From: Perna viridis
Lineage: Eukaryota
DNA: 64,000 nt
Direction: 5' to 3'
NCBI GenBank assembly: GCA_037379345.1
Contig: CM074511.1
Span: 14,074,001 to 14,138,000 of the forward strand
A program made the translations under genes and the position numbers. The notes beneath the pieces were generated by a model. The model had not been told where the DNA came from. It saw only the letters and a list, made by a program, of their open reading frames with translations, and did not search any database. Shown here piece by piece: positions 31,142 through 61,854 of the stretch; positions within the stretch are counted from its first letter, which is position 1, and every line of letters starts with the position of its first letter.

Positions 31142-33522
31142 TAATTAGTTTTACTGTCACTATCCCCCACGAGGGCACCGAAATTTAAATATTCAATGAG
31201 CAATATTGACCACAATTTACATTCCAAGATTCAAATAAGGGGTGCATTAGATTTGTTTTGCATAAAAAAGCCAGAAAACAACACTTTCATGAATTTGAGG
31301 GCCCTGAAATGGTTTTCTTGGTTGCTGAGGACTATTTCATGCATTAAAACCTCCATGGACATTTTCAAAAGTTGGCAGGTATGAGTACAAGAATGAATAT
31401 TCAATTGTATAATTAGTGTACATGTACTATATTAGAGAGAGAGACCATTACATGATGTAGGAGATTTGGCCTCTTTAGGTTTTACAGTGTCAGAAACATA
31501 TATACTTTTTATTGTGCAAGGATGAGTAACAAATGTTTTCTGAATAACTAATTTAATGCTAAGTAGTTGAGTTCAAATTTCATATTAAATTGTGCTTGTG
31601 AAGAAGCCTTTGATGATAAAAGTACAGCTATATTCTCCTAATCAGCTTTAACTTGATAAGAAAAGATATGACAAGTTTCTATTTCTTAACATGACAAAGA
31701 GATGATTAAGTCTCCTTTTATAGGCGGAACAAGCATGGATTTTCCTATAATTTATTGAGAAAATTATAGTTCTGTAAATACCTTTATTAGTAAATTGATT
31801 TCCTTTTATCAAGCGCCATAAATCGCCACCACACTGTTTTCAGTAGGTGGAGAGATGATATCTATAAATAGGTAATATGAGATGAAAGAACAATCTAAAT
31901 ATATTGGTTACAATTAACATATGGTATTGTCGTTTTGCCTTCTGTATATGTGATTCATTCATCCTTTTTTTTTTTTACCTGTCCACAATAAAGACAGGTA
32001 ATTGTTAGCCCCTTCTTTTGAGTCAGATCAAAACAATTACTTTGTAATCATTAATAGATAGTTTTCATCGATTACTTGTCAAGTGTTGGTAAAATTGACA
32101 CTTAGTCTCAATGCAATATGATATTATTATCGCTGCAATATTACTTGACGTTTTGAGAAAATATCGTTGTAAATATGAACATAAATATTGTAAATATAGC
32201 TGTGTATTGTTGTTGTAGAGAATAGCTTTATGGGACTTCTAATTGGAAGGGCGACAGGTAACTACCGTTTGGCATGCAATTTTCGTTGCTTTGGTACAGG
32301 ATATTGGAAAAACGATCTCCGATGATATTGTAGAGAAACCCAGTACAAAATTGGAGCAATCAACTAAGATTATTAAACTTTTAAGGACAATGCATTGTTT
32401 TTAGATCAGTAACGCACCATTGTTTGAGGAAATATTGTACTTGATTATTTCTCAGGAAGTGTAAACAATATCAATCTTGGAAATTTCATCTCAGATTACA
32501 TTAGGAATAGCTAGGATTCTATGATATGAATACCGATTAACTTTTGAGTGCCTCCAATACTTCATATGGGAATAACTTATTTTTATTTTTCCTCAAATTG
32601 ATTCACAGCAGGGAGGCCAAGACCTCAATTAATCAGCTAGTAATTTTGGGCTTCCTGTTTTTCGTTGTTTTAACAGGATACAACCCTCGACAAAACTGAA
32701 GATGGTGATTGCCATAAACTGAACTTTCAGTAAAAACGGATGTTAAGTTTATGGTATCTTGCTCTAAGGGGAATTTAGCCTACATATAGGCATGATATAG
32801 TGTATATTACTTCAACAGAAGGGTAAGGTCTTATTAAAAAGCTTTCAGACTCTAAATCTTAATCCATTTATTTATATCAAAAGTCAGAGCTTAAAATTCA
32901 AACTTTAAAGTGATTTACTTTATAGAATTGAATACTATTTCTTAAATGTAGAACTGAAAGCAAGATTTGTGTAGATATAATATAAACAACATTTCAGTTG
33001 TAGATTGGAGATCTATGTTAGAAGTATAAGCTTCTGATTTTTTATCCAACTTTTAAAGAAATATATTAAGAAATTTTATCTGTTTTTGTTTGTAAATTTG
33101 TCTCCTTTATCTTTTGCCTCTTTTGAAGTAACAGAAATTCATCTTGCTGATATCATAGAAACAGTGAAGTACTGCATGGTTTATGTAGAAAATAGTACTA
33201 CTTAAAAATCAGAAAACGATAAAAAATGCCCCCCCCCCCCCTCAAATATTTTCAAAATAAATATTTTTGATTTTTACTCTGAAATTATTACTGTACACCA
33301 ACTTATTTTTGTGAGCCATTTATTTTGCTTATTTTGCAAGAATGAAAAAAATCACGAAAATAAATTGTCTGAAATATGTCCCTTCATTATAGACCTACAT
33401 ATAAAAAAGGGTGATAGTCATGAAAATTGATTTGATAGCCTGAAATGCAATAAAAAAAAAACTTTTAGAATAGTCTGTTCATGGTAAGTTTTAGGTTTAT
33501 TTTAGAGATCATTACAAGGTTT

Positions 33523-34709
33523 CCAGTACCAAGATAAGCACTTCGAAACCCTACCCCTAGACTGAAGTATACCAGTACCAAGATAAACACTTCCAGACCT
33601 TACCCCTAGACTGGTGTACCAGTACCAAGATAAGTACTTCCAAACCCTACCCCTACACCGATGTTCCAATACCAAGATAAGCACTTTCAAACCTTACCCC
33701 TAGACTGATGTTCCAGTACCAAGATAAACATTTCCAAACCCTACCCCTAGACTGATGCTCCAGTACCAAGATAAGCACTTCCAAACCCTACCCCTAGACT
33801 GGTGTACCAGTACCAAGATAAGCACTTCCAAACCTTACCCCTAGGCTGGTGTACCAGTACCAAGATAAGCACTTCCTTACCAAACCCTACCCCTAGACTG
33901 ATGTACCAGTACCAAGATAAGCACTTCCAAACCCTACCCCTAGACTGGTGTACCAGTACCAAGATAAGCACTTCCAAACCCTACCCCTAGACTGGTGTAC
34001 CAGTACCAAGATAAGCACTTCCAAACCCTACCCCTAGACTGATGTTCCAGTACCAAGATAAGCACTTCCAAACCCTACCCCTAGACTGATGTTCCAGTAC
34101 CAAGATAAACACTTCCAAACCCTACCCCTAGACTGATGTACCAGTACCAAGATAAGCACTTCCAAACCCTACCCCTAGACTGATGTTCCAGTACCAAGAT
34201 AAGCACTTCCAAACCCTACCCCTAGACTGGTGTACCAGTACCAAGATAAGCACTTCCAAACCCTACCCCTAGACTGGTGTACCAGTACCAAGATAAGCAC
34301 TTCCTTACCAAACCCTACCCCTAGACTTGTGTACCAGTACCAAGATAAGCACTTCCAAACCCTACCCCTAGACTGGTGTACCAGTACCAAGATAAGCACT
34401 TCCAAACCCTACCCCTAGACTGGTGTACCAGTACCAAGATAAGCACTTCCAAACCCTACCCCTAGACTGGTGTACCAGTACCAAGATAAACACTTCCAAA
34501 CCTTACCCTTAGACTGGTGTACCAGTACCAAGATAAGCACTTCCAAACCCTACCCCTAGACTGGTGTACCAGTACCAAGATAAGCACTTCCAAGCCCTAC
34601 CCCTAGACTGGTGTACCAGTACCAAGATAAGCACTTCCTTACCAAACCCTACCCCTAGACTGGTGTACCAGTACCAAGATAAGCACTTCCTTACCATACC
34701 CCTAGACTG
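33523..34709. repeat. Minisatellite, 47-bp unit (52-bp variant with +CTTAC), about 25 copies
   Basis: Unit ccagtaccaagataagcacttccaaaccctacccctagactggtgta. It explains the six repetitive ORFs between 33502 and 34697. Confidence 0.98.
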
Positions 34710-35558
34710 TCATTATACTTGTCTTAATTAACACAATACACAATCATTAAATCAGGATTATACCTTTTTTTCTTCTAAATCCCTTAAATAATCAATTTTT
34801 CATCAAGTAATAGACAGCCATTCTTAGAAAAATCTCTGTGAATTATTGGTGATTACATGTAAATTCAATTACAGAGTGTGTTTTTGGTGTTCTTAACTAA
34901 ATTAACCATTTTGTACTATAATAGGCTAACACAGCTAGAAGCATTTTAATTTGTGAAGGTTGTTAAAATCTTTTCAGAACTTCTCTGATAGTATAACAGT
35001 TTTTTTCTTTTATTGATGAAAAATCTTTTTTTTCCGCCTGTGATCTTATTTTTTTTTTCAAATTTAACCTCCATATGGACTCAGCTGAACTTATTGGAAC
35101 TAGGAAAAATAATCTCAATATAAAAAAAATGATGATGGGGAATATAATTTTAATAGATGCATAACATTTAATATTTGGACTAATTGCAGTGGTGCAGTGT
35201 TGAAAATGTTGTTAAAAGAGATTGAGTAAAGTAAAGCACGTTTTTAAATCTGATTACAAAGAAATTTTCATAAATATTTGAAATTGATATGGATTATAAT
35301 TTTATTTAAAATCTCTCCTGTGATGAGTAAAAACAAATGTAAACAAACATTTAATCAGGTCTAGTTAATTGAGTCCTTTTACACTTGTGTTCTGGTAATA
35401 GTAGGCGAGCTTATATGAGCTTGGTTCCAAGGCTAGGCTAGTTGAAAAGTACACATTGAAAAGTACACATGTGCATTCATTTCCTCATCTTCAGTTTTTT
35501 GTGTGTGATTGTATTTTATTCTGTTCACTACATTCTGTATGTAGATTTCTCTGTTTCA

Positions 35559-35855
35559 TGTTTCCAGGTTTCAGTCATGTCTTTGTTTCCAGGTTTTGGT
35601 CATGTCTTTGTTTCCAGGTTTCGGTCATGTCTTTGTTTCCAGGTTTCAATCATGTCTTTGTTTCCAGGTTTCGGTCATGTCTTTGTTTCCAGGTTTCCGT
35701 CATATATTTGTTTCCAGTTTTCAGTCACGTCTTTGTTTCCAGGTTTCGGTCATGTACTTGTTTCCAGGTTTCGGTCATGTCTTTGTTTCCAGGTTTCGAT
35801 CATGTCTTTGTTTCCAGGTTTCGATCATGTCTTTGTTTCCAGGTTTTGGTCATGT
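35559..35855. repeat. Minisatellite, 25-bp unit, about 12 copies
   Basis: Unit tgtttccaggtttcggtcatgtctt. It has no stop codon in the three + frames, which explains the ORFs at 35456-35942. Confidence 0.97.
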
Positions 35856-36069: not shown

Positions 36070-36109
36070 AATACCGCTGAGATTTTGAAGCTGAATCTAA
36101 GGTTATACA

Positions 36110-36627
36110 GACCCGTGCAGGTCCGGGTGTCAAAAGAATAGGCCTGCAGCAGCGCTAAGCTTGTCGTAAAAAGAGACTAAATACTGCTCAGAACCATAGC
36201 CAGAGGCTAGGGCGCTCTGCCCATAGAGCAACTGGGTTGTGTGCCCCAGGTGGTGGAATGGGGTTCCCCTGGTGTGTTACATGCTTGGGTTGTCAGACTA
36301 TAATATGAAAAACCTGACCGCAAACCACACGGTGTTGGGAAAGATGCCACATTCCTCGCACATTAAAAAACCCTACTGTGGTATTTTCCCGGAGTAGGAA
36401 CCATAGGGCTCTGCCACCCGGAGGCTAAATTGCCCGACCCTACCTACCTCTCCCTATTTCCAGTGGCAATCAAAATTTCTCAACCCCATTATCCTTGTGT
36501 CCCATCCCATTTTTCATTTCATTATCATTTCATGTTCATTTTATCATCCATTTCATGTTCATCGCCTGAATATAGCTGAAATATTGCTGCTCGGGCATTA
36601 AACCCCAATAAACAAACAAAAACAAAA
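36110..36627 (+). mobile_element. SINE-like non-autonomous retroposon, 518 bp, with 13-bp TSD
   Basis: TSD ctaaggttataca at 36097-36109 and 36628-36640. The body is GC/CpG-rich. The 3' tail cgcctgaatatagctgaaatattgctgctcgggcattaaacccc is followed by an (AAAC)n-type A-rich tail. Confidence 0.88.
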
Positions 36628-37589
36628 CTAAGGTTATACAATAGAATATTGGTTTAAAGTACATTACTACAAAACATAAATGTCTGCTATACTTTAGCTA
36701 TGGATTGTAATATCTCATTTTACCTCATTTATTTATCAAGATCACAGGTTTTTATTTCTATGAATTTTTTTTTAGACTATAACTGCTTTACAGGTGTTTT
36801 TTTATTTTTCCTTCTAAATACCAATGCTTCAGTGTTAAATTGCTTGTTGCCACTTCTAAATCAGTTTTTTAGTAATAGGAGGCAGTACTTTCTTCTGTTT
36901 TAATTTAGGCAGGAAATTGAAATTCCAATTCATTTTTGACAAGGCCCCTAGGAGACCGACAGATCAGGTTTTCCTATTAGAAAGATGTGATGTTCCTCAA
37001 GTTACGTCTAGACAGCTTTTAGGACTCTGATGAAAAAAGTTAGAAACTGTTTTGTTTCCTAGTAGGCTGATAAACACTTTCATCAGTTACAGAGTGGAGA
37101 GGTGAAATGAGAAAATTCATTGAAAAAAATCGATGTGATTTTATATTTTGATCCACTTTCAAGTTTTGTGTAGATTGTTTGTGAAGCCATAATGTCAATT
37201 TGCCATAGGCAGGAAGAGTGGTCTCTCAATATGTTTTATGCTTCATATTAAAGCGTAAACAGAATTTTTTTTAAGATGGCCTATGAAACCATCATTTACT
37301 TTTTGAGGTTCCTGAATTTTAACTTATTTTTCTTCAGGTAGTCTTTTAATTTTTTTATTTATTTTGATGCCTTGGGGTAAAATATATTAGCATACTATGC
37401 TAAAACACTCCTTTTCATAGGAAATGCATTGTATTAAAGGGACTTTCCAGTCATATTCGTTATATATTGATGCGTGCACATTATAGAATTTTACCAGCAA
37501 GGAAATACAAACCATACATATAATCTATATAAGTAGGAAGTTTGATGACCTTTACAAATTGGTTACCACTCCACACATCTTAAGTAACA

Positions 37590-43400: not shown

Positions 43401-44694
43401 TATGAAAACAGATTATTATCTCAACTCATGATTGATGGATTGATTTTAAAAAATGGTATGTGGCTTTATTTGTTCTTTTTTTAAATGAAAATGTCAACTT
43501 CTGTACAAGTTGGCATATACCTAGTACAACATATGTGTGCAACTTCATATTAATGTAGAAAAAGTCCTCTCAGTTATATAACAAACCAGTTTAGCTCAAA
43601 TTGTTTATACAATGTCCCTTTAAAAGTTCAAGTGTACATCAAAATACTTGTCAAAATAAATACTATTTACATGTAGAATATAATATATGTTAAACTACTT
43701 TTTATGTTTAAGGTGAAGTAGAAAAAAAAGTACTGTTCTTTCCTTCATGGGAATGTGTTGAAAAGGGGGTTGGGGACTTTTTTTTCTTTTTAGATGTTTT
43801 TCCTATTTTAGGACAACATTGAATATTGGAACTTAGTTGGTCAAATACTACAGATGGTATAATCACAAATGGCAACAAACAATCTTGAATATATTAAAAG
43901 GAGAATTTCAGGCTTAACTGTTCTAATTTGCAGTTTTCAGTTTCAGTATCACTGTGTATCAAAGGTCATGCTCCTATGATGAATTAGACCTCCTTTTAGA
44001 ATAGGTTATAGTTATAATTAACAACAGTCTCTACCCCTTCCTGTATCACTATACAAAATGCCAATGATTAGAGTGTGACCATACTTAGACATAAATTATC
44101 TGACCACTCAGTATAAAAACTCTTTCTTAAACTTGTTTGTTTTCATTTTCACTTAAAATTTAATATCAGTCCAAGTATTGGGCGTGTCTTTTAGAAAGTG
44201 TGTTATAAACTTTGGTTTGAATGGCCGTAGAAAGTTAATTAGTATTGGAGCCTCTTCACCTACAAGAAATCAGACATCTTAAACAACCCTTGAGCTCAGG
44301 GTACTTGAGGTTGGTCATATTACTTTCTTTCTGAGGTGTTTGATTACTAAATCTATACAAGTTTTCAAGTGTCACTGATTTATTTCTATGTTAAATTCAG
44401 CCAAGAGTGTGTAAAGTTTTGGCATGAATAATATTTTGGACTAGGATTTCCTGTAGGATTTTGGGAATTAGGACTGTTAAACATTTGGCAGCCATAGTAA
44501 AGGTCTGTTTTTTTATACGTACATTTTCATTTCTGGAATAGAAAAAATGTTAAGTGATGGACATGTTAAAAAATTCTGTGATTTTCTTTAAATGTGTTTT
44601 TTTTTTTTAGTATTGCAGGATCAATTCAGGAGGTATATACTGTACCCAACAAGCGTTCTAAAAGTTTTAATTAAATTTGTATCTCAAATAACTG

Positions 44695-44854
44695 TACATT
44701 GAATCCTGTCTAAACTGAAACCCTTTGGTTTATGTAAGACAGGTTTACCAAGATTCAAAGTACATTTAAATTGATGTGAATGAACCTTTAAAAGAGTCTG
44801 GTTTAGAGAGGTTTTCAGATAATTCAGGGCTCAGTTTGGACAGTTCTCAATGTA
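44695..44854. mobile_element. MITE with TA ends (Tc1/mariner-type structure)
   Basis: Termini tacattga / tcaatgta plus a subterminal inverted pair ctgtctaaactga / tcagtttggacag. Confidence 0.6.
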
Positions 44855-46186
44855 TACTTTTCTTCATGTATGTAGTGTCTTTTCTTACGTAGTGACCTAA
44901 ATTCTATGTTTAATATGTATACAAACTCATATCCTGTTGATAAGTCAAGAGTTTTTTTCTTGTTAGACCCTTGTATACAAGTAAACAAATCCGTTTAGGG
45001 ATTTAATCAGCCTGTAATAGATATACATGTATTGTTACTGGGGGATCTCTACTAATATCTGAAGTATATCCTTTTTTTTTGTGCTTATTGACAATCTGGG
45101 TAAGTTGTTTAAGAGGAAGTCTTTCTATCACAATAAGTGGTGATCATTTGAAAATTTCCTGCAACTGAATCATTGTATCAAGATTTGCTCCCAAATTTAA
45201 AACTATATGTAAATGTTTTTGAAGTACTGAGATGATTGATTTGATGGTCAGGGTATGACTGAATTACAGGACTAGTAATTTCTTCATGGTGGATTGTTAG
45301 TCAGCTTCTCTCATAGTTTTCTAGTTATTGCTAACCCATTTCTAGAATCTCATTTAAAACCAGCTGCCCAAAATTTTGTGTACAGTTTGAAAAGATAGGT
45401 GTTCATTGGCTTGTTTCCAGTCCTCTTCAGAAATAGGTAATTTGTACCCAACAGAAAGTCCAACTTACATTGAGGTTGAATATATTAACCATTTTATGTC
45501 AAAATATGACAAACCTATGTGCTTGTAAAATTCCTAGTTATGATATAATTTGATACATAGTAATACATATACTTCCACATGACCAATATTTAATGAAATT
45601 CAGGACGAGGACAGCTGCACCCATTTGCAAATTTGACTGAAAGTCTTTTTTGTACTCAAGTTGCTTTTCAGCCAGATGAAGATGTCTAGCAATGGGTTCT
45701 ATAGACTGAGTACTATTATGCAGCTTCTTTTCAAACTGAGCCTTAACCACTAATTGTAAATGACGAGTGAGGTGTCACAATTCTTGTTTTTTATGTCCCT
45801 TTTAAAGGAATTGATGTATTGTATGGTATCAAGACCCTAACGTCATTGTTGTAATTGACAATCGTGTTGTGGTCTAAAACCTATCAGTATGTGAATTTTA
45901 TGTAAGTTAAGACCATGATATTATCATAAAAGGACCTTGAAAAAGCCACAGTTGTAGTCAAAAGGATGTAGTTTTATTTTGTTGACAGTAAAAAAACTTG
46001 AATAGGTGCAGTTACAGTAAACCAAATACATTATTATAGTGGTAACCATCTCATGAATAATTGAAAACATTATGAATAAATGATTGTTGACATGTGAAAT
46101 GCATTACTTAAGTGTGAAATGGAAATGTTACATGTGACTTCACAAAAGGTAGTAACATAGATTACAAGAAGACCAGATAATTTGAT

Positions 46187-49100
46187 GGGGAATAATTAAC
46201 AGACTGAGATGGTGAATATGTTATTGATTAGAGAATCCTGTTTGTGGGGGGGGGATAATTAACAGACTGAGATGGTGAATTTGTCATTGATTAGAGAATC
46301 CTGTTTGTGGGGGGGATAATTAACAGACTGAGATGGTGAATTTGTCATTGATTAGAGAATCCTGTTTTTGGGGGGGATAATTAACAGACTGAGATGGTGA
46401 ATATGTCATTGATTAGAGAATCCTGTTTGGGGGGGGGAATAATTAACAGACTGAAATGGTGAATTTGTCATTGATTAGAGAATCCTGTTTGGGGGGGGGG
46501 GTGATAATTAACAGACTGAGATGGTGAATTTGTCATTGATTAGAGAATCCTGTTTGTGGGGGGTGATAATTAACAGACTGAGATGGTGAATTTGTCATTG
46601 ATTAGAGAATCCTGTTTGGGGGGTGATAATTAACAGACTGAGATGGTGAATTTGTCATTGATTAGAGAATCCTGTTTGTGGGGGGGGGGTGATAATTAAC
46701 AGACTGAGATGGTGAATTTGTCATTGATTAGAGAATCCTGTTTGTGGGGGGTGATAATTAACAGACTGAGATGGTGAATTTGTCATTGATTAGAGAATCC
46801 TGTTTGGGGGGTGATAATTAACAGACTGAGATGGTGAATTTGTCATTGATTAAAGAATCCTGTTTGGGGGGGGGATAATTAACAGACTGAGATGGTGAAT
46901 TTGTCATTGATTAGAGAATCCTGTTTGGGGGGTGATAATTAACAGACTGAGATGGTGAATTTGTCATTGATTAGAGAATCCTGTTTGTGGGGGGGGGGGT
47001 GAAAATAAAAATACTGTGAGGGTGAATTTTACATTGTTTAGATAATCCGTTTTGTGGGGGGGGGGTGATAAGTAACAGACTGAGATGGTGAATTTGTCAT
47101 TGATTAGAGAATACTGTTTGTGGGGGGGATAATTAACAGACTGAGATGGTGAATTTGTCATTGATTAGAGAATCCTGTTTGTGGGGGGTGATAATTAACA
47201 GACTGAGATGGTGAATTTGTCATTGATTAGAGAATCCTGTTTGTGGGGGGTGATAATTAACAGACTGAAATGGTGAATTTGTCATTGATTAGAGAATCCT
47301 GTTTGGGGGGGGGGGGTGATAATTAACAGACTGAGATGGTGAATTTGTCATTGATTAGAGAATCCTGTTTGGGGGGTGATAATTAACAGACTGAAATGGT
47401 GAATTTGTCATTTATTAGAGAATCCTGTTTGGGGGGGGGGTGATAATTAACAGACTGAGATGGTGAATTTGTCATTGATTAGAGAATCCTGTTTGTGGGG
47501 GGGGGGGGGTGATAATTAACAGACTGAGATGGTGAATTTGTCATTGATTAGAGAATCCTGTTTGTGGGGGGGGGTGATAATTAACAGACTGAGATGGTGA
47601 ATTTGTCATTGATTAGAGAATCCTGTTTGGGGGGGGGGGTGATAATTAACAGACTGAGATGGTGAATTTGTCATTGATTAGAGAATCCTGTTTGGGGGGG
47701 GGGGGTGATAATTAACAGACTGAGATGGTGAATTTGTCATTGATTAGAGAATCCTGTTTGTGGGGGGTGATAATTAACAGACTGAGATGGTAAATTTGTC
47801 TTTGATTAGAGAATCCTGTTTGTGGGGGGGTGGGTGATTAACAGACTGAGATGGTGAATTTGTCATTGATTAGAGAATCCTGTTTGTGGGGGGGGGGTTG
47901 ATAATTAACAGACTGAGATTGTGAATTTGTCATTGATTAGAGACTCCTGTTTGGGGGGGGGGGTGATTAACAGACTGAGATGGTGAATTTGTCATTGATT
48001 AGAGAATCCTGTTTGGGGGGGGATAATTAACAGACTGAGATGGTGAATTTGTCATTGATTAGAGAATCCTGTTTGTGGGGGGGGGGTTGATAATTAACAG
48101 ACTGAGATGGTGAATTTGTCATTGATTAGAGAATCCTGTTTGTGAGGGGGTGATAATTAACAGACTGAGATGGTGAATTTGTCATTGATTAGAGAATCCT
48201 GTTTGGGGGGTGATAATTAACAGACTGAAATGGTGAATTTGTCATTGATTAGAGAATCCTGTTTGTGGGGGGGGGGGTGATAATTAACAGACTGAGATGG
48301 TGAATTTGTCATTGATTAGAGAATCCTGTTTGTGGGGGGGGTGATAATTAACAGACTGAGATGGTGAATTTGTCATTGATTAGAGAATCCTGTTTGTGGG
48401 GGGGGGGTGATAATTAACAGACTGAGATGGTGAATTTGTCATTGATTAGAGAATCCTGTTTGGGGGGGGGGTGATAATTAACAGACTGAGATGGTGAATT
48501 TGTCATTGATTAGAGAATCCTGTTTGTGGGGGGTGATAATTAACAGACTGAGATGGTAAATTTGTCTTTGATTAGAGAATCCTGTTTGTGGGGGGGTGGG
48601 TGATTAACAGACTGAGATGGTGAATTTGTCATTGATTAGAGAATCCTGTTTGTGGGGGGGGTTGATAATTAACAGACTGAGATGGTGAATTTGTCATTGA
48701 TTAGAGAATCCTGTTTGGGGGGGGGGGGTGATTAACAGACTGAGATGGTGAATTTGTCATTGATTAGAGAATCCTGTTTGGGGGGGATAATTAACAGACT
48801 GAGATGGTGAATTTGTCATTGATTAGAGAATCCTGTTTGTGGGGGGGGTTGATAATTAACAGACTGAGATGGTGAATTTGTCATTGATTAGAGAATCCTG
48901 TTTGTGAGGGGGTGATAATTAACAGACTGAGATGGTGAATTTGTCATTGATTAGAGAATCCTGTTTGGGGGGTGATAATTAACAGACTGAAATGGTGAAT
49001 TTGTCATTGATTAGAGAATCCTGTTTGTGGGGGGGGGTGATAATTAACAGACTGAGATGGTGAATTTGTCATTGATTAGAGAATCCTGTTTGTGGGGGGG

Positions 49101-49283
49101 GGGGGTGATAATTAACAGACTGAGATGGTGAATTTGTCATTGATTAGAGAATCCTGTTTGTGGGGGGGGGGATAATTAACAAACTGAGATGGTGAATATG
49201 TCATTGATTAAAGAATTCTGTTTGGGGTGATAATTAACAGACTGAGATGGTGAATATGTCATTGATTAAAGAATCCTGTTTGG
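46187..49283. repeat. Tandem array of ~3.1 kb, about 49 copies of a ~60-69-bp unit with a variable poly-G tract
   Basis: Constant 53-bp core gataattaacagactgagatggtgaatttgtcattgattagagaatcctgttt followed by (gt)G(4-13)(t). Copies were counted by eye. Confidence 0.98.
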
Positions 49284-51030
49284 CTCTTCAAAGGCTTTAA
49301 AGTATTGTGAAAAGGTTCATTGTAGTTGAATCAGAATTGTTTTTTCCCATTTGAGTTCTTCTTTAAGTATGTCTGATATGCCTGCATGTACTTCTTTGAT
49401 GGATACTACTTCTAGCTTTAATGACCTCAGTGTGAAATAGAATGTTACTGGAATACAAACCAGAACTTTTATTCTACACTGATCAGCATACTGCATTGAA
49501 AACTAAGTTAAGTGTAAATTGTATAAAAATTGAAATAAAATCTGATTTATTGAAGCAAAAAATATGTAAGTAGGTTTTTTTTCTGGTCTGATTACTTTCT
49601 GTTTTATGTATAGCCTTCCTATGAATGAACAGTCTGTCACAGTTCCAGTTCAGTTCAGTGATGCATCTTTATTTAAATCCAAATCAGTTCGATCGATATC
49701 ATTTTTCGTTGGATTTTAAAATAAACCACAAGTTAGTAGAATTTGTGCTTTTCTTCATTTAAATGGAGAAAAAGGTAAATCACACATAGCATCATACACT
49801 TCATTTGTTGAACATGTGGCCAAGGTGGTGGTGGTAAGTTTTCATTTTTGAAATTTGATTAGTTTAAGGTCTTTAGATTTGTAGCTGAGGCACGTCATAT
49901 AAACATTATAGTTTTATGTGGTGGAACAAATGGGATGATCTGTTTTTAATTATAGCAGTATAAACACACATTTTACTCACACCAGATGATCTTATACAGA
50001 AATATATCCATATCATAACAATATCATAGCTTAATATTTGTCTTCTATGTGATCTGCCTCATTAAGAAGGAGAATTAATTAGAAGTGACCAAAAGAATAA
50101 TTTATAGGTGATAAAACTCACACAGGTTAGTAACAGGAACTAGAAGATTAGGACTGATTAGTGGTATGTGGATATTAGGGGTAAAACACTGTAAAAACAG
50201 GCAAAGAGAGGCTTGTGAACGACAGTCTGAACATCCAAGATAATTGTTATTGTTGCTTGTTGTAGAGTGGATTATTGCTGCTCTTTGTACCTTTTTCTAG
50301 TTTTTGTGGACTTAAAATTCTCTAGCTTTTACAAAGGTATGTCTTCAATAACAACTATAGTGTAACAAAAAGACATGAAGCTCAAGAATTTACTGTGTTA
50401 TGTTAAATATTGTGTGTTTGTAACCAGGTTTTTCACTCATTTTTCTTCTATAACACTCATTTTTTTACTTTCTTAAAAATATAGAATGTAATAATTCATA
50501 CGATAGTGTACTACACCCTAATTAATTAGTGATATAATTATGTAATTAACATTTAATCTTTAAGATGAGCCTTCCATTAGTAATAACTGTCATTTCATGC
50601 CAGGACAATATTAGACTATCTATCATACTTGTAGCATGAAGACATTTGTTTTTACTGTCTGGGTCTTTTAAAGTCACGATTTGTGCAGTTCTTAACAGAA
50701 CTGAATGATGGTTGGATATGAAATAAGACATAACAATTGACTATCTGTAACTTTAATTTATATCAGGATATGAAAATGATATCATTCTATAAATTAAATA
50801 CTAATGATACAACATGAAAAGTTTCATACGGAAAATCTTAGTAGACTCAGTAGTAATAGAGAGCTACATTGACTTTTAGACTGGCCTTTGCTGTGCCTGA
50901 AATTTACATGATAATTTAGTGTTTAGGTCAAGCCAATAAGTTTGCCTGAAGTTTGAGTAGGTGGGGGGGTCATGGTTTTAATCACCAAAGGTTTTGAAAT
51001 TTGCAGTTACTGCATTAATATCTGGTATTG

Positions 51031-51052
51031 CAATCAATCAATCAATCAATCA
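51031..51052. repeat. (CAAT)n microsatellite, about 5.5 units
   Basis: caatcaatcaatcaatcaatca. Confidence 0.9.
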
Positions 51053-51899
51053 GTAGGGATAACATCATATTGTAATTAGGTACAGTTACAGTACGTCGTC
51101 ATATGACCATTTTTTTTTAAATGTATGCAACTGCAAATTTCTATTAAGTGCTGTTTGAAGTATTACCTAACAAAATCAACATTGTCTCATATTGTGTGAC
51201 TAACTTTACCAACATTACACAGGATGTAGTACATCTTAACCAAGTTATGAAGTAGATATTTTATAAAATTGTTAGCCGAATTATAACCTCTTTTGTTTAA
51301 GGTAAGCAGTTCGTAAATGAAGCTAGGGAGGTTCAGTTTTATTCTGACCATGTAAGATTTAGGGCCTGAGTTTTAAATGGCTAAGCTTTGTGAATACATG
51401 TACTTATGTTTGACAAGAAAGGAGTTTTTATTTTCCATTTGAAAGAAATTAAGTCATTTTACTATGTTTTTATTTCCTGACAATATTTCTTGTTTTTGTT
51501 CACGACTGATGGGTGCCATAGTCCTCAGTATAGTTAAGTATAATTTTCATGTAAGGGTGATGGTTACAGGCTTTATCTGATCTGCCATATTTCTCTAAAC
51601 TCAATTATTGAGAGAATTTTTCAAATTAAATGTTGTTGTGGACTTGAAGCATCATTTCGGTTCTGTTGTATTTTCAAGCAGCAACAATAAGCCCAACCAG
51701 TGCTATTTTTGGGGTATGAGTATTTTTCTCCTTGAAACTGACCATTAAACTTTTGTATTAGATAGAGATGATGCTTTTATATCATTTTAAAGCTTAGTAC
51801 ATTTGTTTAAACATATTTCATTGTAAAATTTGCAAAGGATCAGACAAGCTTTTTACCACCTTACCTTGTCTTCTCTCTTAGTACATTGTATATATATAA

Positions 51900-52621
51900 C
51901 AGTGTTCGTTCCAGTAAATTGCAGAAGGATTAAGCAGGGGGTTATTTTCAGAATAAAGGGGGTCAATATGGCAGTATAATATGGGATCATTAATAGATAA
52001 CTAGAGAGATTCAACCTACAAATAAGTTAATGTCAGGTTTGTATACATTTTATAGTTTCATTTTCAATGAGAGGTAACAGAGGTATATACTCTTCAAATG
52101 GACAAAAGAATTAGTATTTGTTGTCTATTTATTATGACATTCTCTTGATTCAAATTGTTACTTATTTTGATGTGACAGCTCCACTTAGAATTTTTCTGTT
52201 CTTTTCGGGGTCATATCCAACCTGGCCCAGGCCTACAGTCATTCCATTTCCATTTTACTCAACATTCTCTAGTTTCCTCACCTATGTCTGTTTTCAGCCA
52301 GTCAGCTCATGTGAGAGTTACTGGGTGTCTTGGGAAACGAACTTGTCCCATGCACACCGCCTGCAGTTTCCCTAAGTATTTTGACCCAAAAATTTTTTAC
52401 AAATTTTTGTTTCTCATGTTTAGTAGGAAACAGTCAAAGCTATTGGCACTTTAAAATGACAGAGACATATTTGAACACAGAGTAGAAAAAATTTCAGGAA
52501 ATTCATACATAGCTCTACAGAATACTGTGCGTCCACTGGGTCCACATGCCACACTTTTTGTGCTCCATGCATAAAATATCCGTGCCAATGGGCGCAAGGG
52601 TGCGATCTTGAATGAACACTG
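51900..52621. mobile_element. Non-autonomous DNA transposon with CAGTGTT termini (hAT-like ends)
   Basis: TIRs cagtgttcgttccag / cttgaatgaacactg match at 13/15. The 3' subterminal region is GC/CpG-rich. No 8-bp TSD is recognisable. Confidence 0.5.
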
Positions 52622-52749
52622 TTAAAATATTTTTTATGATTCTGCCTTTATAGATGTTCACTAGCTTGTTTGTTGTTCACATAGAATCAGTATACTGATG
52701 CATTATTTCAAGCAGAATTTAACCTGCCTGTCAACTGATTCAAGTAAAG

Positions 52750-52805
52750 TGTCAACTTACAAGTCGCATGACAACTTACAAGTCACATGTCAACTTACAA
52801 GTCAC
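52750..52805. repeat. Tandem repeat, 19 bp x 3
   Basis: tgtcaacttacaagtcgca / tgacaacttacaagtcaca / tgtcaacttacaagtcac. Confidence 0.93.
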
Positions 52806-54281
52806 GTTTCACTTAAAAGTCATGGTGTCCAATATCAAGAGCAAAATTTTGCTAATTAGGGAGCATCCTTCTTTAAATAAACTAAATTCTAAGTATGCAT
52901 CTTTAGAAGAACCCTATTGCATCATTAAGCTTCTGTACAGTTCATTAAACACTATGGCTTTATAATTATTTAACATCATATTGCAACTGAATCTAACAGA
53001 GAAAATGAGCCATTTGTCAGCAAATTTATTATCTTAGTGTTATGGCTTTAAATACTATTGGCTTTTGCAATAGTTGTAACAACATGGGGTTGACTCTTTG
53101 TGAAGTTATTTCAAAGGCAATTGAAGTGTTAGGAGTAAGTTAGAGCTTGAAAGTATATATGTATCTAGGCCAAGCAATTATCCTTTATCAATCATAAGAT
53201 CTGAGGGGAACTGAAAAAAAAATTCAGGTTGAAACTGAGCTGCACCACACAAAAAGGGTATGCTTAATATCTATTGTTTAATTTAATGTTTTTGGATGCT
53301 CTCTCCAATTGATTTAGTCTATCTATGTTACATAAGTTACTTACATGCAGACAGCAAAAAACAAAACAAAAAACTATGCTTTTTTGTGTGGAGTGTCACT
53401 TGAATTTACATGTGTTCATGCATATTATGGAACAGTTAGGATTAATTTTGATTCTTTAAGTGACAAAGTTGACGTAATCTGAGGAAACAACTTTACATAG
53501 AAGGAAGTTATCTACGTGGACACAAGGACTTAATTATCCTTAGAAAATTCTTGTTAGCTTAAGCACTTCCATAGGACTGTCTCAATTTCAAAAGTTTTAA
53601 TTTGATAACTGTATTTTAGTGTTTGATGTTCAAAGCTAACAACTCAGGTTCTTTATATGAATTTCTCAATGACTATTTTGTCACTGACAAACCTAATACT
53701 ATGCAAGGTTCTAAGAGCTTGAACAATTCTTGAATTACAAAGTTTCAACACCTAGATCTGTACACTAACCACTTCATCATGATGTTTGTCTCTCCACATT
53801 TATTGTTAACATTTGATAATATCCTATTGCTGTATTTTTGTGGGAATATTTTTACAGCAAATTCTACAAAATTTTAATTTTTTTATTTAAAATTGGTTTG
53901 TCATACCAGTATTCATTAACTCAAAGCTTTCCTTCTTGATTTAATTGCCGAGGGCATCAAAATAGAAAAGAAAGATTCTTTTACTGAAAACAATATAAGG
54001 AATGTGGTTTTTAGGATAAAACATACTTTTTGCTGTTGGAGTGCAATTCATACCCAATACTTTGCAACAGAAAACCAGCCAGATATCAAACATTGACCCT
54101 TGACACTATATTAGCTGACTCTCTACCAAGTAAAAAGAACAAGAGTATCCTTGAGGGATCAAATTTTCAGTAAGGAGTTCAGTTGGTTTTGGCATCAGCC
54201 CCTGGTCCCATAAATAAATAAATCTCAAATAGAGGATGACCATTATTTACAAATCAGATTGCTTGAAATGAAGATTTTTTA

Positions 54282-54460
54282 CAGTGACGGATCCAGAGGG
54301 TGTGGGTGCAATGGGTTGACACCCCACCTTTTTATTGGAATCTTTGTCATTATCATGTGTAAAATTGACAAAAAGGGCAAACAATGTCCTAGCAACTCCC
54401 TTTTCTGAGAAATCCCGGCTGGCACCCCTCCTTTTAAAAGTTCCCAGATCCATAACCACA
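54282..54460. mobile_element. GGATCCAG-family MITE
   Basis: The 5' terminus is cagtgacggatccagaggg; the 3' end is degenerate (cccagatccataacc). Confidence 0.45.
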
Positions 54461-55979
54461 GTTATGCAAATAACTCGTCCCTTTTGATTCACAATAGAGT
54501 CTTCGAAGGTAATACAAGGAAACATTGATTTGCTTTAAAAGATGTTCAGTTTGTACAGATTTTAGGTAGAAAATAGGCAAATACGACGTCCAAGAAATGT
54601 TCTGAAATTTTGCATGTGGAAAGATCAACTCGATTGCAATCATACGACAGAAAAAAATGACATTGTATCGGATTTCATTTTCTAAGTACATAAATTTGAA
54701 ATATACAGGTACAAGTATAGTGATGAAAATCCAAAGTATCAGAAGGAATCTGGTTTCTTGTTTCTCAGGGTTTGATTAAGACTGTATGGTACTTGTACAT
54801 TGTTGATCCTTATCTTTCATGCTCACTTACTTCATAATGATGGACAATGAAAATTAATATACTTTTGTCATAACATCATTAATCAAGTGCTCTTGGATTG
54901 TTGTCTGGACTTTTTGCCTTAAATGTACTATTTTTGTGGTAAATGATATTTGTGTTATCTGAGTTTTGCAATTAAAATGTAATCTTGAATGGATTGCAGG
55001 CATAAAAGAAAAATATTAATTTTACATTCTATCATTTTTTATCCTTTTCTATTTAAAACTCCCATTGATTAAGTCTTTGTGTTTATAAAGCAGTGTTTTA
55101 TTGACTTGCAAGAACAGTCACAATGACTCTTTTGTGTGGAGGTGAAAAACTGCTTAGGGCAAGACAAAATGCATGATTTGATTTTTCTGATGGTTTATGA
55201 TAAAGCTTGTGTAAAATCCATCTTTAATTCAATTGACTATGTAAAACTCAATAACCTTCTTCTTATTTATTTGTACCTTCTGTATTTTTCAGTGGCTGAG
55301 AAATTTAAATAACTTTTGACACATGTCAATGAGGGATGGTTTCAGATAAATTTAAAAAAGGGCATTTTGAAGGGTTCTAACACAAACTTAATGTAAATGT
55401 GTTAGATGTCGTAGGATGGGGTTTTCAGGGGTTACTGGTAGTTTGGGGTCATTGTATGCAATATTAGCTTTTGATTGTCATGGAAATTTATTTGTAAAAT
55501 GGAATAAAGGATGTGGCTGTTTGAGCTTCCTTTCCTGGTATTTGTGGTAGAAAAAAAGAAGTTCATAATAGTAAGTTTGAAAAGAAAAACATGAATAACT
55601 TGATAAATTGTGAAGTTAAAATCCACTTAAAATAATATTTCTTATGTATTTCTGACTCATTAATTTTTGGACAGAATCATAAATATTGCTCAAATGGGGA
55701 GATAACTCTTCATTTTTTAATGTTGGTACACCTGTTTGTAAAATGGAGTAGTGGTTAATTTACATTGAACATGGTATTTAAATGACAGTAATTTACACAT
55801 TTAAACCACACTAAAAGAGTTGAGAAGGGGAAAAAATATGGTAAAAGTTGGCATGTTAACTGGATTTAAAATTTACCGTTCTTTGAATGTACAGTGACTT
55901 GCAAGTATTTTAAATATTTTCTTCTTTTTCAAGTGTGATAATGTTTAGATTCATAGTTTTTATTTCTTTCTATTTTCAG

Positions 55980-56108
55980 ACAACTATCAATGAGTGAGTA
56001 TAGTATATGCGGTGTAGCCAGAATGTTCGGATGGTGTGACTACTATAGGTGGATATAAAAATGATCAGATTCATCTTACTACGGGTAGACAGTGGGACTT
56101 AAAGAGGA
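55980..56108 (+). other. 5'-UTR part of the first coding exon of the plexin gene
   Basis: A strong acceptor, tttttatttctttctattttcag|a, has its AG at 55978-55979, 129 nt upstream of the ATG at 56109. This implies non-coding exon(s) further upstream. Confidence 0.7.
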
Positions 56109-57344
56109 ATGAAAATGGCAGTGTTCCAGGATTGGTGGATTCAGTCCCCTTGCAGTAGAGTTTTACTGGTTGTATGTGTTTTGCAACACTTTTTCCTGGT
56201 GCTGAATTCGATTGTTGCATTATCTTATCCTGTTAATTCATACAGAGTAGAAACAACTTTCTTGAAAGACAACAGCAGTGAAAATGGTTCCATCATTCAT
56301 TTCATTTATGATAGAGATCTGAATTCATTTTATGTTGGTGGTACAAATCGAATCTTCAAGCTTAGCTCTTCTCTAGAAATTCAACAAGAGTTAATCACAG
56401 GTCCAAAGTTAGACAGCATTCACTGTGAACCAGACTCATCTAATTGTGAATATGCTAAGGAATTAACAGATAATTACAACAAAATATTGCTCATCCAACA
56501 ACCAGTGAATGGAAATGGCCATATTATTGTTTGTGGAAGTTTGTTTCAAGGATACTGTGAGTTCCGTGATTTACACAATATAAGTAGGACTATTAGTGCC
56601 AATGTGGAAAACAAAAAAGTAGTAGCAAATGAGAAAAAGGCTTCAACTGTTGGTATTCTAGTTAGAATTGGCCTAAGTGAGCATGTCATTTACATTGGAA
56701 CATCATTTCCAATAGCATTCGTCTGTGAGAGTGATGAATATAGTAAGTTTCGTAGAAGTAGTGTTCCAAGTTTGAGTATGAGAAAGTTATCAATGGATGA
56801 TGCCTTTGATTTGTATAATTCTCAGCTTGTAAGTCTTAGCAAAGTGTCTTCATCCTTGAAGGTTCATGATGATATGTTGGAAAAGTATACCATTGATTAT
56901 AAATCAGCATTTTCTGTTGGAAATTACACCTTTTTTTTATCGATTCAACCTTCACGTACTTGTCAAAATGTACAAAGTGGCCCTCCTGTATCCGAATCAA
57001 AGATATCCTCAACATGCATTTCTGATACACTTTTTTATTCTTATGTGGATATTCCATTGAAGTGTGGAAATAGTATCGTCTACAACTTGATTCAAGCTGG
57101 AAAAACCTTGGTTCCTGGATTAAATTTACAAGAAAAAATGCTATTAAGTGATACAAAGGAAAAACACATTGTAGTTGGAATTTTCCATAAAATTGTCAGT
57201 GCAAATCAGGTTGATTCAGCTATTTGTATTTATTCTATCTCTGAAATTCAACGCAAAATGCAGGAAAATATCAACCTCTGTATGAATGGGAACAGATCAG
57301 TAAGGGGGGATGATAAATTTGAACATGGTGCAAAATGTGATTCA
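56109..57344 (+). CDS. Plexin (class A vs B not resolvable), first coding exon: signal peptide and most of the Sema domain, 412 codons
   Basis: The 442-aa ORF has a hydrophobic N-terminus and plexin Sema motifs: FYVGGTNRIFKL, TGPKLDSIHC, LTDNYNKILLI, VCGSLFQGYC, VVANEKKASTVG, FYSYVDIPLKC, YNLIQA, SAICIYS..IQRKMQENINLCMNG. Donor TCA|GTAAGT at 57344/57345, phase 0. The ORF tail beyond 57344 is intronic. Confidence 0.93.
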
Positions 57345-57371
57345 GTAAGTATAAACTATATTTTTGTTTGG

Positions 57372-57473
57372 AGTGGCAGATCCAGGGGGTTCAGATTAAA
57401 GAACCCTTACCCTGTTGTTGGAATTCATGTTTTTTGAGGTAAGACTTATAGCCCCCTCTCTGTATCTGCCACT
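57372..57473. mobile_element. ~100-bp MITE located 27 bp into the first coding intron of the plexin
   Basis: TIRs agtggcagatccag (57372-57385) and ctgtatctgccact (57460-57473) match at 13/14. Confidence 0.75.
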
Positions 57474-58487
57474 GGTATTTATTTCCACTTTGAAACCTTC
57501 ATTTTCAAGAGGATTTTGAGTTATATTCCTGATTGTCGTATTTTTTGCAAATTAGATATAAAAAATGAAATACATATCTATTCTGCAATTTGTTTATTAT
57601 CAAAATTAATTATGTTAATTATGAAAGGGTATAAAGATCTGAAGGGCTAAACAAAATTCTGTTGCCAATTTTGAAGTTTATAGGAAGTAATATTTGTGAA
57701 TTTTCAGAATGTTATATTAACTTCTCAGATGTGTAGCATCTAAATCTTGATTGGTATGGCTGGGGTAATGAACACATATTTGAACTTGTTTTTCTTATTT
57801 ACTGAGTAAAATATCTTTTTTTTTTTTTTTTGTTCTTTTATTTATTTTGACAAAAATTATAGGTACTCTGCCAGCTGTACCTGTCGAACCAGCTGCTATG
57901 CCCCTGCTTTTTTACTGGATTGGGAATTTTTGTATGGAAAGAAGAAATTTTCTAATATTCTGCAGCACTCTTTGTACTACAATTGTACTTCTACATTCCA
58001 ATTGTACATGTTACTATGTACTGTATCAATATTTGCACTTGTATTGAATTTTTTTGGCAACAATCTTAGACATGAATTTTTTTATCCAAAGATCTTCTAA
58101 AAGGTAATCTCAATTTAAAGTAAAAGGTGTATAGTGCATGAAAATAAATTTTAATAAATGATTTCTTAAAATTCCTTACTCATCAATCAGCTAGCTTGAA
58201 ATTTGATAGAGAAAAATTAATGATTTTAGGAAAATTATTATGAAACATGGCCTAAGACAAACACTGATTATAATATATGTTAGACTCTCATTTAAGAAAG
58301 GAACTCCTTGAGTGGCATTTCAAAGTTTAATTTTACAGCAGAAAAATCTCAGACTCAATTTTTCAAATACATGAAGGTAAAATGAAACTTAGTTCACAAC
58401 AGCCTGTATACATCCATCAGAGTGAGAATTATTGACAATGTCCTTCATTGTAAAAAAAAAAATGTATTTGTATTTCATCTTTTTTAG

Positions 58488-58685
58488 TCTGGTGTAATTG
58501 GAGCAAATCACGCATCTCTATGCAACGTCTTTATATCAAGTTATGGAAGGGTTGAAGGTATTCTTCCTGCTGTATCCAAGCCTGCTATTGTCTTCCCAAA
58601 CACAACATTGACTTCCATTACATTAACCACAACTACCAACTTTACACTTGCTTTTCTTGGTACTGCAAATGGGCTTATGAAAAAG
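58488..58685 (+). CDS. Plexin coding exon 2 (Sema domain), 198 bp
   Basis: Acceptor catctttttttag| and donor AAG|GTAAAA, phase 0/0. Translates SGVIGANHASLCNVF...TTLTSITLTTTTNFTLAFLGTANGLMKK, containing the typical plexin T-x-A-F-L-G-T-x-x-G-x-x-K-K motif. Confidence 0.9.
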
Positions 58686-58792
58686 GTAAAAGTAATAGAT
58701 AAAATAAGACATTTTTTATTTTTTTCCTTTGCCGGAAAACTTTTGAATTAATGGGATTGTATTATGTTGTGGTGCTTTCATTGTTGTTATAT

Positions 58793-58848
58793 TCATCCTC
58801 AGTATTAGCATGGTCATCATCCTCAGTATTAGCATGGTCATCATCCTC
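58793..58848. repeat. Tandem repeat, 24 bp x 2.3
   Basis: tcatcctcagtattagcatggtca occurs at 58793, 58817 and (partial) 58841. Confidence 0.93.
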
Positions 58849-59135
58849 ATTCATAGACATTTGGTTTCTTCACAGTTAATAGTCCTTGAAAATCATTTTA
58901 TGGATCTTATTATACAAAAGTCAGGTTGGGATTTTGGAGGTTATGACTATCAGCGTTTGGGTAAAAGGGTGTAATATAAGTGGCAGAACACAAACCTTTT
59001 ACTAGTTTATACTAGTTTATACACAATAACTTGAGCGATCTCTATGAAATTATACTATAAATATCAAGCTATCAGAACAATACCAATATCTATATTTGTA
59101 ACATGATGTTAAACCATATCACAAAAATATTTGGG

Positions 59136-59238
59136 TCTGACACTCTTAGGGAATCACACTGTCATTGTTCGTGTCAGCATCCGCAGCTCTGACACTCTTA
59201 GGGAATCACACTGTCATTGTTGGTGTCAGCATCCACAG
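59136..59238. repeat. Tandem duplication, 52 bp x 2
   Basis: tctgacactcttagggaatcacactgtcattgtt(c/g)gtgtcagcatcc(g/a)cag occurs at 59136 and 59188. Confidence 0.95.
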
Positions 59239-60727
59239 TGGCTACATTTTTAGATGCCTTTTTTATTTGTAGACATTCGATGTATAGGCAGTTACATAAG
59301 TAAGATTCTTTGTAAGAATCATGCAAATTCTGTAATATGTGATACACCCCAAAAAAGGCTACACATTTTAATTTTTTGTAATCGAGATGCTTTATAGGTC
59401 TATATGATGAAATGAATAATTTTTCATTCCAGTCTGTCTGCTCTTAGTAGATAATTCACATTGAAAATCCAACAGTTTCTGTTGTATTTTAGTGTCATTT
59501 ACAGAGTTATCTCCCTTAATTTTGAATTCTGCAGTGCATTCTATATAATTTTTATCTCTTATGAACAAGGGTTATATGAAAAGCCACATGTTAATTTATG
59601 TTTACTTATGAATTTTAAACAAAATATCAAATATAAAAATATGTAGGCTTTCCAACCATGTATCACATTTTGCATATTATCTGGAGTGCTAGTGTCATGT
59701 CAACTATGGACATTCATACTACAGCAGCAAGTTAAAAAAAACAAAGACAGAACTAAAACAAAAAACAAAAAAAAACATTGAGCGGTTTCATTATGAATAG
59801 GCAATAACAGTGAACAGACTTGATATAAAATTGATCTACGGATGACGCTTAGAACTGTGGGGAAAAATTCCAGGCTGTGCTGAGTATTTTCACTAGTTTG
59901 AGCTTTGAGCTAAATTACTATATCAAAGTTTTTGTCAAGTCAGTGCACTGTTATTGTCTTTATACTGCAACAAAATTTTGAAAGAAATGTGACTTATTTG
60001 AAGTAAATGACATTATTTGTGACATCACAACAAAAAAATTATATTCATTCAGTGACCATACATAAACCACTTGTAAATATATGGTCAATGCATTTTGACT
60101 GTTCAAATAGAACAGTTGCAGTAAAAATAGTTTTATTAGATACTTTCACATGTTAAAGAAACAACAAAAAAGATGGTTAGATAAGGTTCTAGATATTGAC
60201 CTGTTTGATAGACCATTTAAGTAGCAGTCTTTGTAAAGATCAGACAGGAGGTGCTTCATGCATATCAAAAACCCACCAAATTCAGTTTTATTTCTTGTTC
60301 AGAAACTGTTACTGATCACACTACCAGTCTTAGTTTTTCATTTAGTTGCTTCTTAAAAATTATATGGATTGTACATGAAATTAGCACTTTGCAAGAGTTA
60401 TCATTCTTCATTTTGTTTGATTTTGTTGATTTTAGTGCTAGATAAATGTATGATTTTCTCAAAAGTGCAGATCTGAATAAAGAAATAATTATTGCTGTGT
60501 GAAAATATAGCATATGTAGACTGAAAAAGCATTATTTGTTGGTGGGTTTTTCTACACTATGAATTTCTTAACCATTGGCAGTGTCTGAATTTTATGTGGA
60601 CTGGTACTTAAAAAGACTATGAGTAAATCAAGAAACAGTGAAGAATTTTCTTAAAATGAAATAGGCTTACTGCATGTTAGATAATTTTCTAGGTATACAA
60701 ATGACATCACTTATTTCTTCTTTCTAG

Positions 60728-60859
60728 ATTGTATTAGAAGAGAAATCATTAGCTAAAGAGTATGATACTGATCTTGTCATTGACAAAGGATATCCAATTA
60801 ACCAGGATACTATTTATGACGTGGAACATAGGAAACTCTATCTTACCAGTTCAAGATTG
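60728..60859 (+). CDS. Plexin coding exon 3 (end of Sema domain), 132 bp
   Basis: Acceptor atttcttctttctag| and donor TTG|GTATGT, phase 0/0. Translates IVLEEKSLAKEYDTDLVIDKGYPINQDTIYDVEHRKLYLTSSRL. Confidence 0.88.
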
Positions 60860-61641: not shown

Positions 61642-61742
61642 GTTGCCAAAGTACCAGTTGAGAATTGTGGGCAATATAAGAATTGTTCCACATGTTTGGG
61701 AAGTATGGATCCATTCTGTGGATGGTGTACATTAGAAAATAG
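61642..61742 (+). CDS. Plexin coding exon 4 (PSI domain), 101 bp
   Basis: Acceptor cttactttttgtag| and donor AG|GTAGAG, phase 0/2. Translates [33 protein letters not shown](R), a canonical PSI CxxCL...DPxCGWC motif. Confidence 0.93.
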
Positions 61743-61854
61743 GTAGAGATAATTAAAAAATATCATGATAATTCAATTTCACAAATTGTAATGGAACTTG
61801 TTTTTTATCAATAAACACATGGGATCCTCTCTATCTCAGGAAAATTTCTAACAA

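Follow-up and report, generated by a model that had tools for sequence, protein, structure and literature searches.

The locus examined here raises the question of what a compact, apparently structured RNA head does at the very start of a retroposon. In the window, i.e., the whole stretch of 64,000 nucleotides of Perna viridis DNA that was analysed, a non-autonomous retroposon of 518 nt lies on the plus strand (36110–36627), flanked by two identical 13-bp target-site duplications in the same orientation (5′ copy at 36097–36109, 3′ copy at 36628–36640), which bear out G36110 as its first base, as already noticed in the first-pass annotation. Its place in a family of LP-SINE type (see below) is based on full-length relatives and on a count of head-pattern matches. 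The element terminates in a LINE-type 3′ tail followed by an (AAAC)n repeat (36575–36627, plus strand), recognized from the sequence; by eye only, this tail shares a short motif and its layout with the 3′ end of a LINE from the same genome, while blastn found no match between the two tails. No tRNA gene was found in the 64-kb window and a simple regular expression recovered neither an A box nor a B box in the element, which does not have the features of a tRNA-derived SINE. The retroposon is co-oriented with a plexin-like gene (Sema domain), as first proposed, the spliced exons of which lie on the plus strand within 55972–63742; the first placed coding exon spans 55972–57344, splicing was seen in four runs, and one contig carries 57 further upstream bases for which no placement was found in 44500–64000. 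Elsewhere in the window, about 12 copies of a 25-bp unit are arrayed at 35559–35850, 260 bp upstream of the element, the region 46000–50000 displays a strong G skew (0.55–0.62) and is probably a satellite, and a C-skewed stretch occupies 33000–35000.

The element belongs to a large family, comprising at least 10,863 heads: a loop-free head pattern had 10,863 exact matches in the 723-Mb genome, compared to 25 for the reversed control. A 91-nt head search of the genome returned 1462 candidates, of which 40 were scored, and 28 of the 29 other loci compared match the window copy across nearly the whole element, with 82–91% identity. Regarding the 5′ end, 99 distinct copies were sampled, 50 of them with a detectable duplication; among these 50, 27 start at G1, 41 within 1 nt of it and 46 within 2 nt, bearing in mind that the head served as the query in choosing about one third of the loci and that head anchors were required throughout, so that deeper truncations are uncounted. 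In addition, 529 contigs of one DNA-like run diverge at 36110 or 36112. All four bases are found at position −1. An extra G at the element start is a signature known from L1 work, where it marks a copied cap; such a G precedes G1 in 17/76 (p 0.08), 5/19 and 8/26 cases in three sets, hence without clear excess. Since 5′ ends are common across copies, the window copy is not a random 5′ truncation. The shared 5′ G, put forward as a check in the first-pass annotation, is thus observed, whereas its own refuting case, i.e., a random 5′ truncation of a longer element, is contradicted. An older, diverged copy of the family was also seen inside a tandem repeat of about 2.9 kb (L242–L246, own genome C1, ~2.79–2.80 Mb).

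In the window copy, the head can form an H-type pseudoknot, in which helix S1 (36111–36115/36124–36128) encloses a loop that is itself the 5′ strand of helix S2 (36116–36123/36141–36148, 8 bp, one G-U). These two helices, the A-rich linker between them and the hairpin downstream, all of which had been described at the outset, are present in the sequence. Taken alone, this copy is weak evidence: when the 78 nt are shuffled, 4 of 2000 sequences can form such a pseudoknot, but so can 49 of 820 window tiles, and its plain single-sequence fold is unremarkable (z 0.49). Across the family, the first part of the head (36110–36128, plus strand) consists of the first base G, the S1 core (36112–36115/36124–36127) and the S1 loop, the outer S1 pair (36111–36128) being formed in only 39 of 122 copies. 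An AGAAUA linker (36135–36140, plus strand) stands directly 5′ of the 3′ strand of S2 and is nearly invariant in both alignments (A1 and A2), partly due to the selection of parseable heads; it may engage in minor-groove contacts. The 3′ strand of S2 follows (36141–36148, plus strand), the helix measuring 7–9 bp across families and being supported by covariation. Next comes a third stem, S3 (36151–36157/36182–36188, feature 36151–36188, plus strand), of 7 bp, which surrounds an internal loop and the hairpin; each of its pairs is formed in 99–109 of the 122 copies, and one is broken in the window copy. The hairpin (36163–36180, plus strand) is near-invariant and has a stem of 4 bp (36163–36166/36174–36177) and a 7-nt loop of UAARAGG type, followed by UAA, its closing pair being broken in the window copy; for this part, the 122-copy counts run too high, as the loci were retrieved with patterns that favour it. 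The module hairpin may harbour a T-loop.

The third stem had initially been drawn differently, as GCAG (36149–36152) paired with CTGC (36184–36187). However, 100 of the 122 copies carry a G at 36184 and the corresponding pair (36152–36184) is formed in only 16 of them, so that this stem was a copy-specific misreading, resting on a private mutation. More generally, the window copy carries bases other than those of the family majority at three positions (36172, 36174 and 36184); the changes at 36174 and 36184 break pairs, which marks it as a decayed copy.

As for the covariation proposed as a check in the first-pass annotation, an alignment of 22 diverse heads was used, hand-picked as intact representatives and including six viral ones. 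A hairpin scan of metagenomes yielded at least 122 stretches, in many families. S2 shows double-sided changes in seven of its eight pairs (45 cells vs. 14.9 when shuffled) and a covariation score of 0.657 vs. 0.253 when shuffled, a score that 0/500 shuffles reach and that slid partners do not approach (at most 0.236), these figures being inflated by the relatedness and the choice of the rows. Support for S1 is lower than for S2, while the hairpin stem is nearly devoid of variation and displays no stem covariation. S3 is found, with different sequences, in most retroposon families, but its pairing exceeds that between families only modestly (13.0 vs. 9.5), and it is weak or irregular in three viral copies (L185, L187 and L191). 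A conserved U opens the loop, yet it is paired in only about half of the heads. Over the alignment of heads, there are 19 G-U cells but only 4 A-C cells, which indicates that it is the sense strand that folds. Altogether, the comparison of these sequences argues that the head is a conserved RNA module, made of a pseudoknot, an AGAAUA linker, a stem and an invariant hairpin. In some metagenome families (L165, L172, L111, L066 and L120), the linker ahead of AGAAUA bears long insertions (15–60 nt, some repeat-like), whereas the spacing from AGAAUA to S2 is constant. Tandem pairs of the module were also seen, both in an animal-like contig (L098:1370–1515) and in a viral contig (L184:1–153).

As a sequence, this head already has a name. 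Matetovici et al. (2016; PMC4758252) described mollusc SINEs with a head of about 70 bp common to Nimb-17_LMi, I-3_DR and RTE-9_CPB, which they named LP (LINE promoter) and for which they proposed a promoter function, the ribozyme of L1Tc being mentioned as an analogy only. Their LP-SINEs have a non-tRNA head, duplications of variable length and tandem-repeat tails. The scallop “Nimb-17 homology” copies of their Figure S2 show, by eye, the same layout and the same hairpin as the window head, with compensated changes in S2 and a different but paired S3. With a Nimb-17-like head of about 70 bp (compared by eye to the scallop block), duplications, a tandem-repeat tail and no tRNA head, our element is, on these sequence features, a further member of the LP-SINE kind (PMC4758252), and this kinship by itself points to a mollusc host. 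The link to RTE and mollusc SINE heads, mentioned in the first-pass annotation, is thereby supported. Its description as an uncharacterized structured-RNA head holds in part: the head is structured and starts at the first base, but it had been described as the LP head in 2016. Neither a fold nor viral copies of the LP head appear in the text of PMC4758252 to which we refer, and the word “pseudoknot” is absent from its main text. In the literature outside subscription journals and repeat databases, the hairpin sequence had no full-text match, LP-SINE and Nimb heads were treated in PMC4758252 only, and no account turned up of the fold of the LP head, of its occurrence in viruses or of its exchange for an HDV-like head. 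What appears to be new is the covariation of the fold, the viral occurrence and the HDV-like swap, and not the sequence itself. Furthermore, in four loci (L123, L132, L146 and L151; e.g., L132:740–880), the module immediately precedes a tRNA-like head that bears A- and B-box-like motifs, an arrangement also found in the pectinid SINEs of PMC4758252; ARAGORN called no tRNA in these four loci.

The relationships of the module to LINEs may be informative about its job. In two loci (L200 and L205), the module is followed by a gag-like ORF1 with zinc knuckles, which has 150 matches in the P. viridis genome. The five copies examined correspond to a young two-ORF LINE of 6.08 kb (endonuclease, reverse transcriptase [RT] and RNase H), with more than 99% identity between copies, and the 5′ UTR of this LINE shares collinear blocks with L200 and L205. 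However, its first shared block is not preceded by the module but by about 190 nt opening with an HDV-like fold. This head passes our self-made HDV descriptor (P1-P2-P3-L3-P3-P1-P1.1-P4-C..A-P2), which none of 40 shuffles does. The same descriptor matches neither the window copy nor 14 of 15 other heads, and its sole match among the latter does not use the helices of the module. Rfam returned no match for the LINE head, so that the silence of Rfam is weak evidence. The module and the HDV-like head thus look interchangeable, which suggests a common job, i.e., making the 5′ end of the element. No LINE with a module head was found in the P. viridis genome among 12 inspected of the 150 ORF1 loci, and the 24 variant-tail matches in that genome all belong to the SINE family, without any module-headed LINE. 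The LINE head itself (L220:1700–1760, own genome C8; also L221–L224) is possibly an HDV-like ribozyme in an I/Nimb-type clade. Moreover, four of the five fetched LINE loci (L221–L224) have at least one SINE copy within about 1.5 kb, some of them abutting, suggesting shared insertion hot spots.

Thirteen pattern matches were also obtained in prokaryote genome records, and each of the five examined with the model has one copy. L200 and L205 were rejected as bacterial copies, as they carry a LINE ORF1, and so was L206/L316, where, at the end of a contig, a truncated kinase gene runs into a short SINE-like unit; this unit recurs in the AT-rich DNA of L136. Of 401 genomes of one prokaryote order, one matched, and that one was the query itself. 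In plasmids and phages, blastn found no match to the module. Where examined, the apparent bacterial copies are, by their sequence context, best read as host or chimeric sequence; that no genuine bacterial copy came to light counts in favour of the roadblock discussed below. More broadly, eukaryotic SINE or LINE sequence is present in several prokaryote records (L316:1–420, L200, L204 and L205), either as chimeric contig ends or as host contamination.

The module is also found in viruses. Our head parser was applied to 59 new viral loci and to 13 chosen earlier, and the whole module was recovered in seven of the 11 viral loci that have the hairpin. Under a scoring model built from 17 non-viral rows only, viral modules reach 40–70 bits, compared to 20–31 for hairpin-only matches. 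On six small viral contigs, the module is in coding sense, with the hairpin 53–151 nt past the stop codon of the last long ORF and 44–136 nt from the contig end. According to Pfam, these contigs encode a tetravirus-type capsid (L185 and L192, which have the same sequence), an RdRP_4 (L188), an RdRP_3 along with a nodavirus-type capsid (L191) and an RdRP_3 (L193), while the protein of L184 has no Pfam or PDB match; the latter contig carries a second module copy in tandem, with compensated changes in S2. In L187, the module is intergenic within a DNA-virus contig of 212 kb. As a loop-free control, 62 viral loci were considered: the five with a UAARAGG loop (four distinct) form a pseudoknot reached by 0/100 shuffles, whereas the other 57 either lack one or have one that at least 5/100 shuffles reach. 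The viral set is small (six distinct sequences), and three wider scans provided no further viral example, 80 of at least 120 loci having been scored in the last one. That unrelated RNA-virus contigs carry the module just past their last stop codon indicates that it acts as RNA, and these contigs display a conserved pseudoknot in a virus UTR, on the sense strand, as xrRNAs do.

Which activity, then, could serve both at the 5′ end of retroposons and in the 3′ UTR of viruses? Our tentative answer, to which we assign a probability of roughly 0.4, is that the head is a roadblock to the 5′-to-3′ exoribonucleases XRN1/XRN2, i.e., an xrRNA-like element. The element RNA would be read through from host promoters and the co-transcript shortened from its 5′ end as far as the base of S1, where the nuclease would stall; an I/Nimb-type LINE protein recognizing the tail would then reverse transcribe the protected RNA. 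Full-length copies would thus arise with neither a Pol III promoter nor a ribozyme. In viruses, the product of such a block would be a short non-coding 3′ RNA. Among the options listed in the first-pass annotation, the sequence data favour exonuclease resistance rather than self-cleavage, given the presence of the module in virus 3′ UTRs and the fact that an exonuclease block fits both settings. Indeed, a 3′ UTR position after the stop codon is typical of xrRNAs (PMC8374639, PMC10321173), while viral ribozymes mostly reside in 5′ UTRs, with exceptions in 3′ UTRs (PMC13725137).

Known xrRNAs provide both likenesses and differences. The module resembles the class 3 xrRNAs of plant viruses (ST9a) in being compact, with a pseudoknot of 8–9 bp, a first stem at the 5′ boundary and a UTR position; in that class, it is at the base of the first stem that XRN1 comes to a stop, and both the long pseudoknot and a T-loop are needed (PMC12397905). 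However, class 3 has P1 and P2, with an AGY linker and with the T-loop lodged in the apical loop, whereas the module has one short stem, a loop that is paired throughout and a separate downstream hairpin; moreover, no retroelement example of the class is given in the text of PMC12397905 to which we refer. Coremin and its Watson–Crick variant, from virus 3′ UTRs, likewise combine a small pseudoknot-like part with a required downstream hairpin, but are characterized by a YGAD loop, a CUAC spacer and a sequence-variable second hairpin (PMC10321173), while in the module it is the pseudoknot that varies and the hairpin that is conserved. As for classes 1 and 2, the supported structure contains no three-way junction and Rfam gave no match. 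These disparities with classes 1–3, along with the lack of an Rfam family match, would argue against a roadblock, and so would the finding that XRN1 is not halted by plain H-type frameshift pseudoknots, also when a hairpin is added to them (PMC10321173). The limited support for S3 and the small size of the viral set count against it as well. Finally, a 17-nt stretch scarcely varies from molluscs to viruses, partly because the search patterns select for it, and in this respect resembles a catalytic core or a site of protein binding more than it does the variable xrRNAs.

The s2m element is a single stem-loop. Found in virus 3′ UTRs and insect genomes, it is, like the module, a small RNA with a patchy distribution among unrelated viruses and in animal genomes, where LINE-like sequence lies nearby (bioRxiv 2020.06.29.177030). 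It is not known to have a defined role at retroposon 5′ ends, and Rfam has no match for the module. The HDV-like ribozymes of R2, RTE and L1Tc/Ingi occupy the same position and apparently do the same job, i.e., defining a 5′ end from a co-transcript, but the module lacks their P2-P3-L3-P1 order (PMC6765202, PMC5786205). Around the window copy, the Rfam ribozyme models (hammerhead, twister, twister-sister, pistol, hatchet and HDV) gave no relevant match up to an E-value of 10, and 20 loci yielded no Rfam match at the gathering score; together with the failure of the HDV descriptor, this agrees with the initial statement that the fold does not correspond to HDV, hammerhead, twister or pistol.

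At face value, these comparisons might still suit a new class of self-cleaving ribozyme, cutting just 5′ of the first base and freeing the element from host co-transcripts, in the manner of the HDV-like ribozymes of R2, RTE and L1Tc. A 2026 preprint reports about 150 new ribozyme classes. The sharp 5′ end, the free base at −1 and the many invariant unpaired bases would be expected from such a ribozyme, and the module occupies the place of the HDV-like head in related LINEs, a swap that would fit a ribozyme and a roadblock equally well; besides, linear RNA viruses do carry ribozymes, exceptionally in 3′ UTRs (PMC13725137). Against this, a cut 5′ of the module would presumably sever the viral genome from its 3′ end in all six small-virus contigs, neither the presumed cut site nor the positions next to it hold a base that families and viruses have in common, and both the HDV descriptor and Rfam failed, so we consider a ribozyme unlikely, albeit a serious candidate. 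A position past the last stop codon also fits translation enhancers. This position, the near-invariant hairpin without stem covariation, suggestive of sequence-specific binding, and the ORF1 downstream of the module in L200 and L205 could all point to a binder of the ribosome or of translation factors, which would act as a 3′ cap-independent enhancer in viruses and, in LINEs and SINEs, would work like an IRES or capture proteins. The 5′ end would then be set separately, e.g., by an overlapping internal promoter, as in the 77-nt signature of L1Tc, the precedent cited in PMC4758252. Yet, SINEs are non-coding and nonetheless begin exactly at the module, which precedes a tRNA-like head in some families (also in PMC4758252), and G1 is not clearly preceded by an extra G from a copied cap; to us, a translation element appears rather improbable.

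Two further readings deserve very little credence. The module might be recognized by polymerases, the LINE RT using it to join the 5′ end and viral replicases binding it close to the 3′ end of the genome. Its locations in retroposons (5′ ends) and in viruses (near 3′ ends) would allow this, and the R2 protein, which binds a 5′ pseudoknot, provides an example (PMC6765202). However, the polymerases of its carriers are unrelated (Nimb/RTE RTs, RdRP_3, RdRP_4 and those of a large DNA virus), which makes one shared host factor or an intrinsic activity more likely. Hardly any weight at all should go to a promoter acting at the DNA level only, with an incidental fold and viral copies as passive captures, even though the module is at position +1 of LINEs and SINEs and a promoter was what PMC4758252 proposed: the covariation, with its sense-strand G-U bias, speaks against it, as do the distinct and fully paired S2 sequences of RNA viruses, whose lack of a DNA stage implies that a promoter is not the shared function. 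In contrast, any of the readings, including the exonuclease roadblock that we prefer, leaves room for a promoter that overlaps the RNA function in the manner of L1Tc.

Considered as a whole, the sequence comparisons make it fairly probable that we are dealing with an undescribed class of mobile RNA modules, passed between LINEs, SINEs, RNA viruses of invertebrates and a large DNA virus, the fold of which would by itself make a defined 5′ end, either as the first xrRNA of cellular retrotransposons (replacing a promoter and a ribozyme) or as a new ribozyme class. This bears on the question of how full-length 5′ ends arise in those LINEs and SINEs that have neither a Pol III head nor a known ribozyme. 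So far, xrRNAs are known from viruses, even if a 2021 review anticipates cellular ones (PMC8374639). If the module cleaves, it would represent a new ribozyme class; if it blocks XRN1, it would be a cellular xrRNA present in tens of thousands of genomic copies, and would open a third route to the 5′ ends of retrotransposons.
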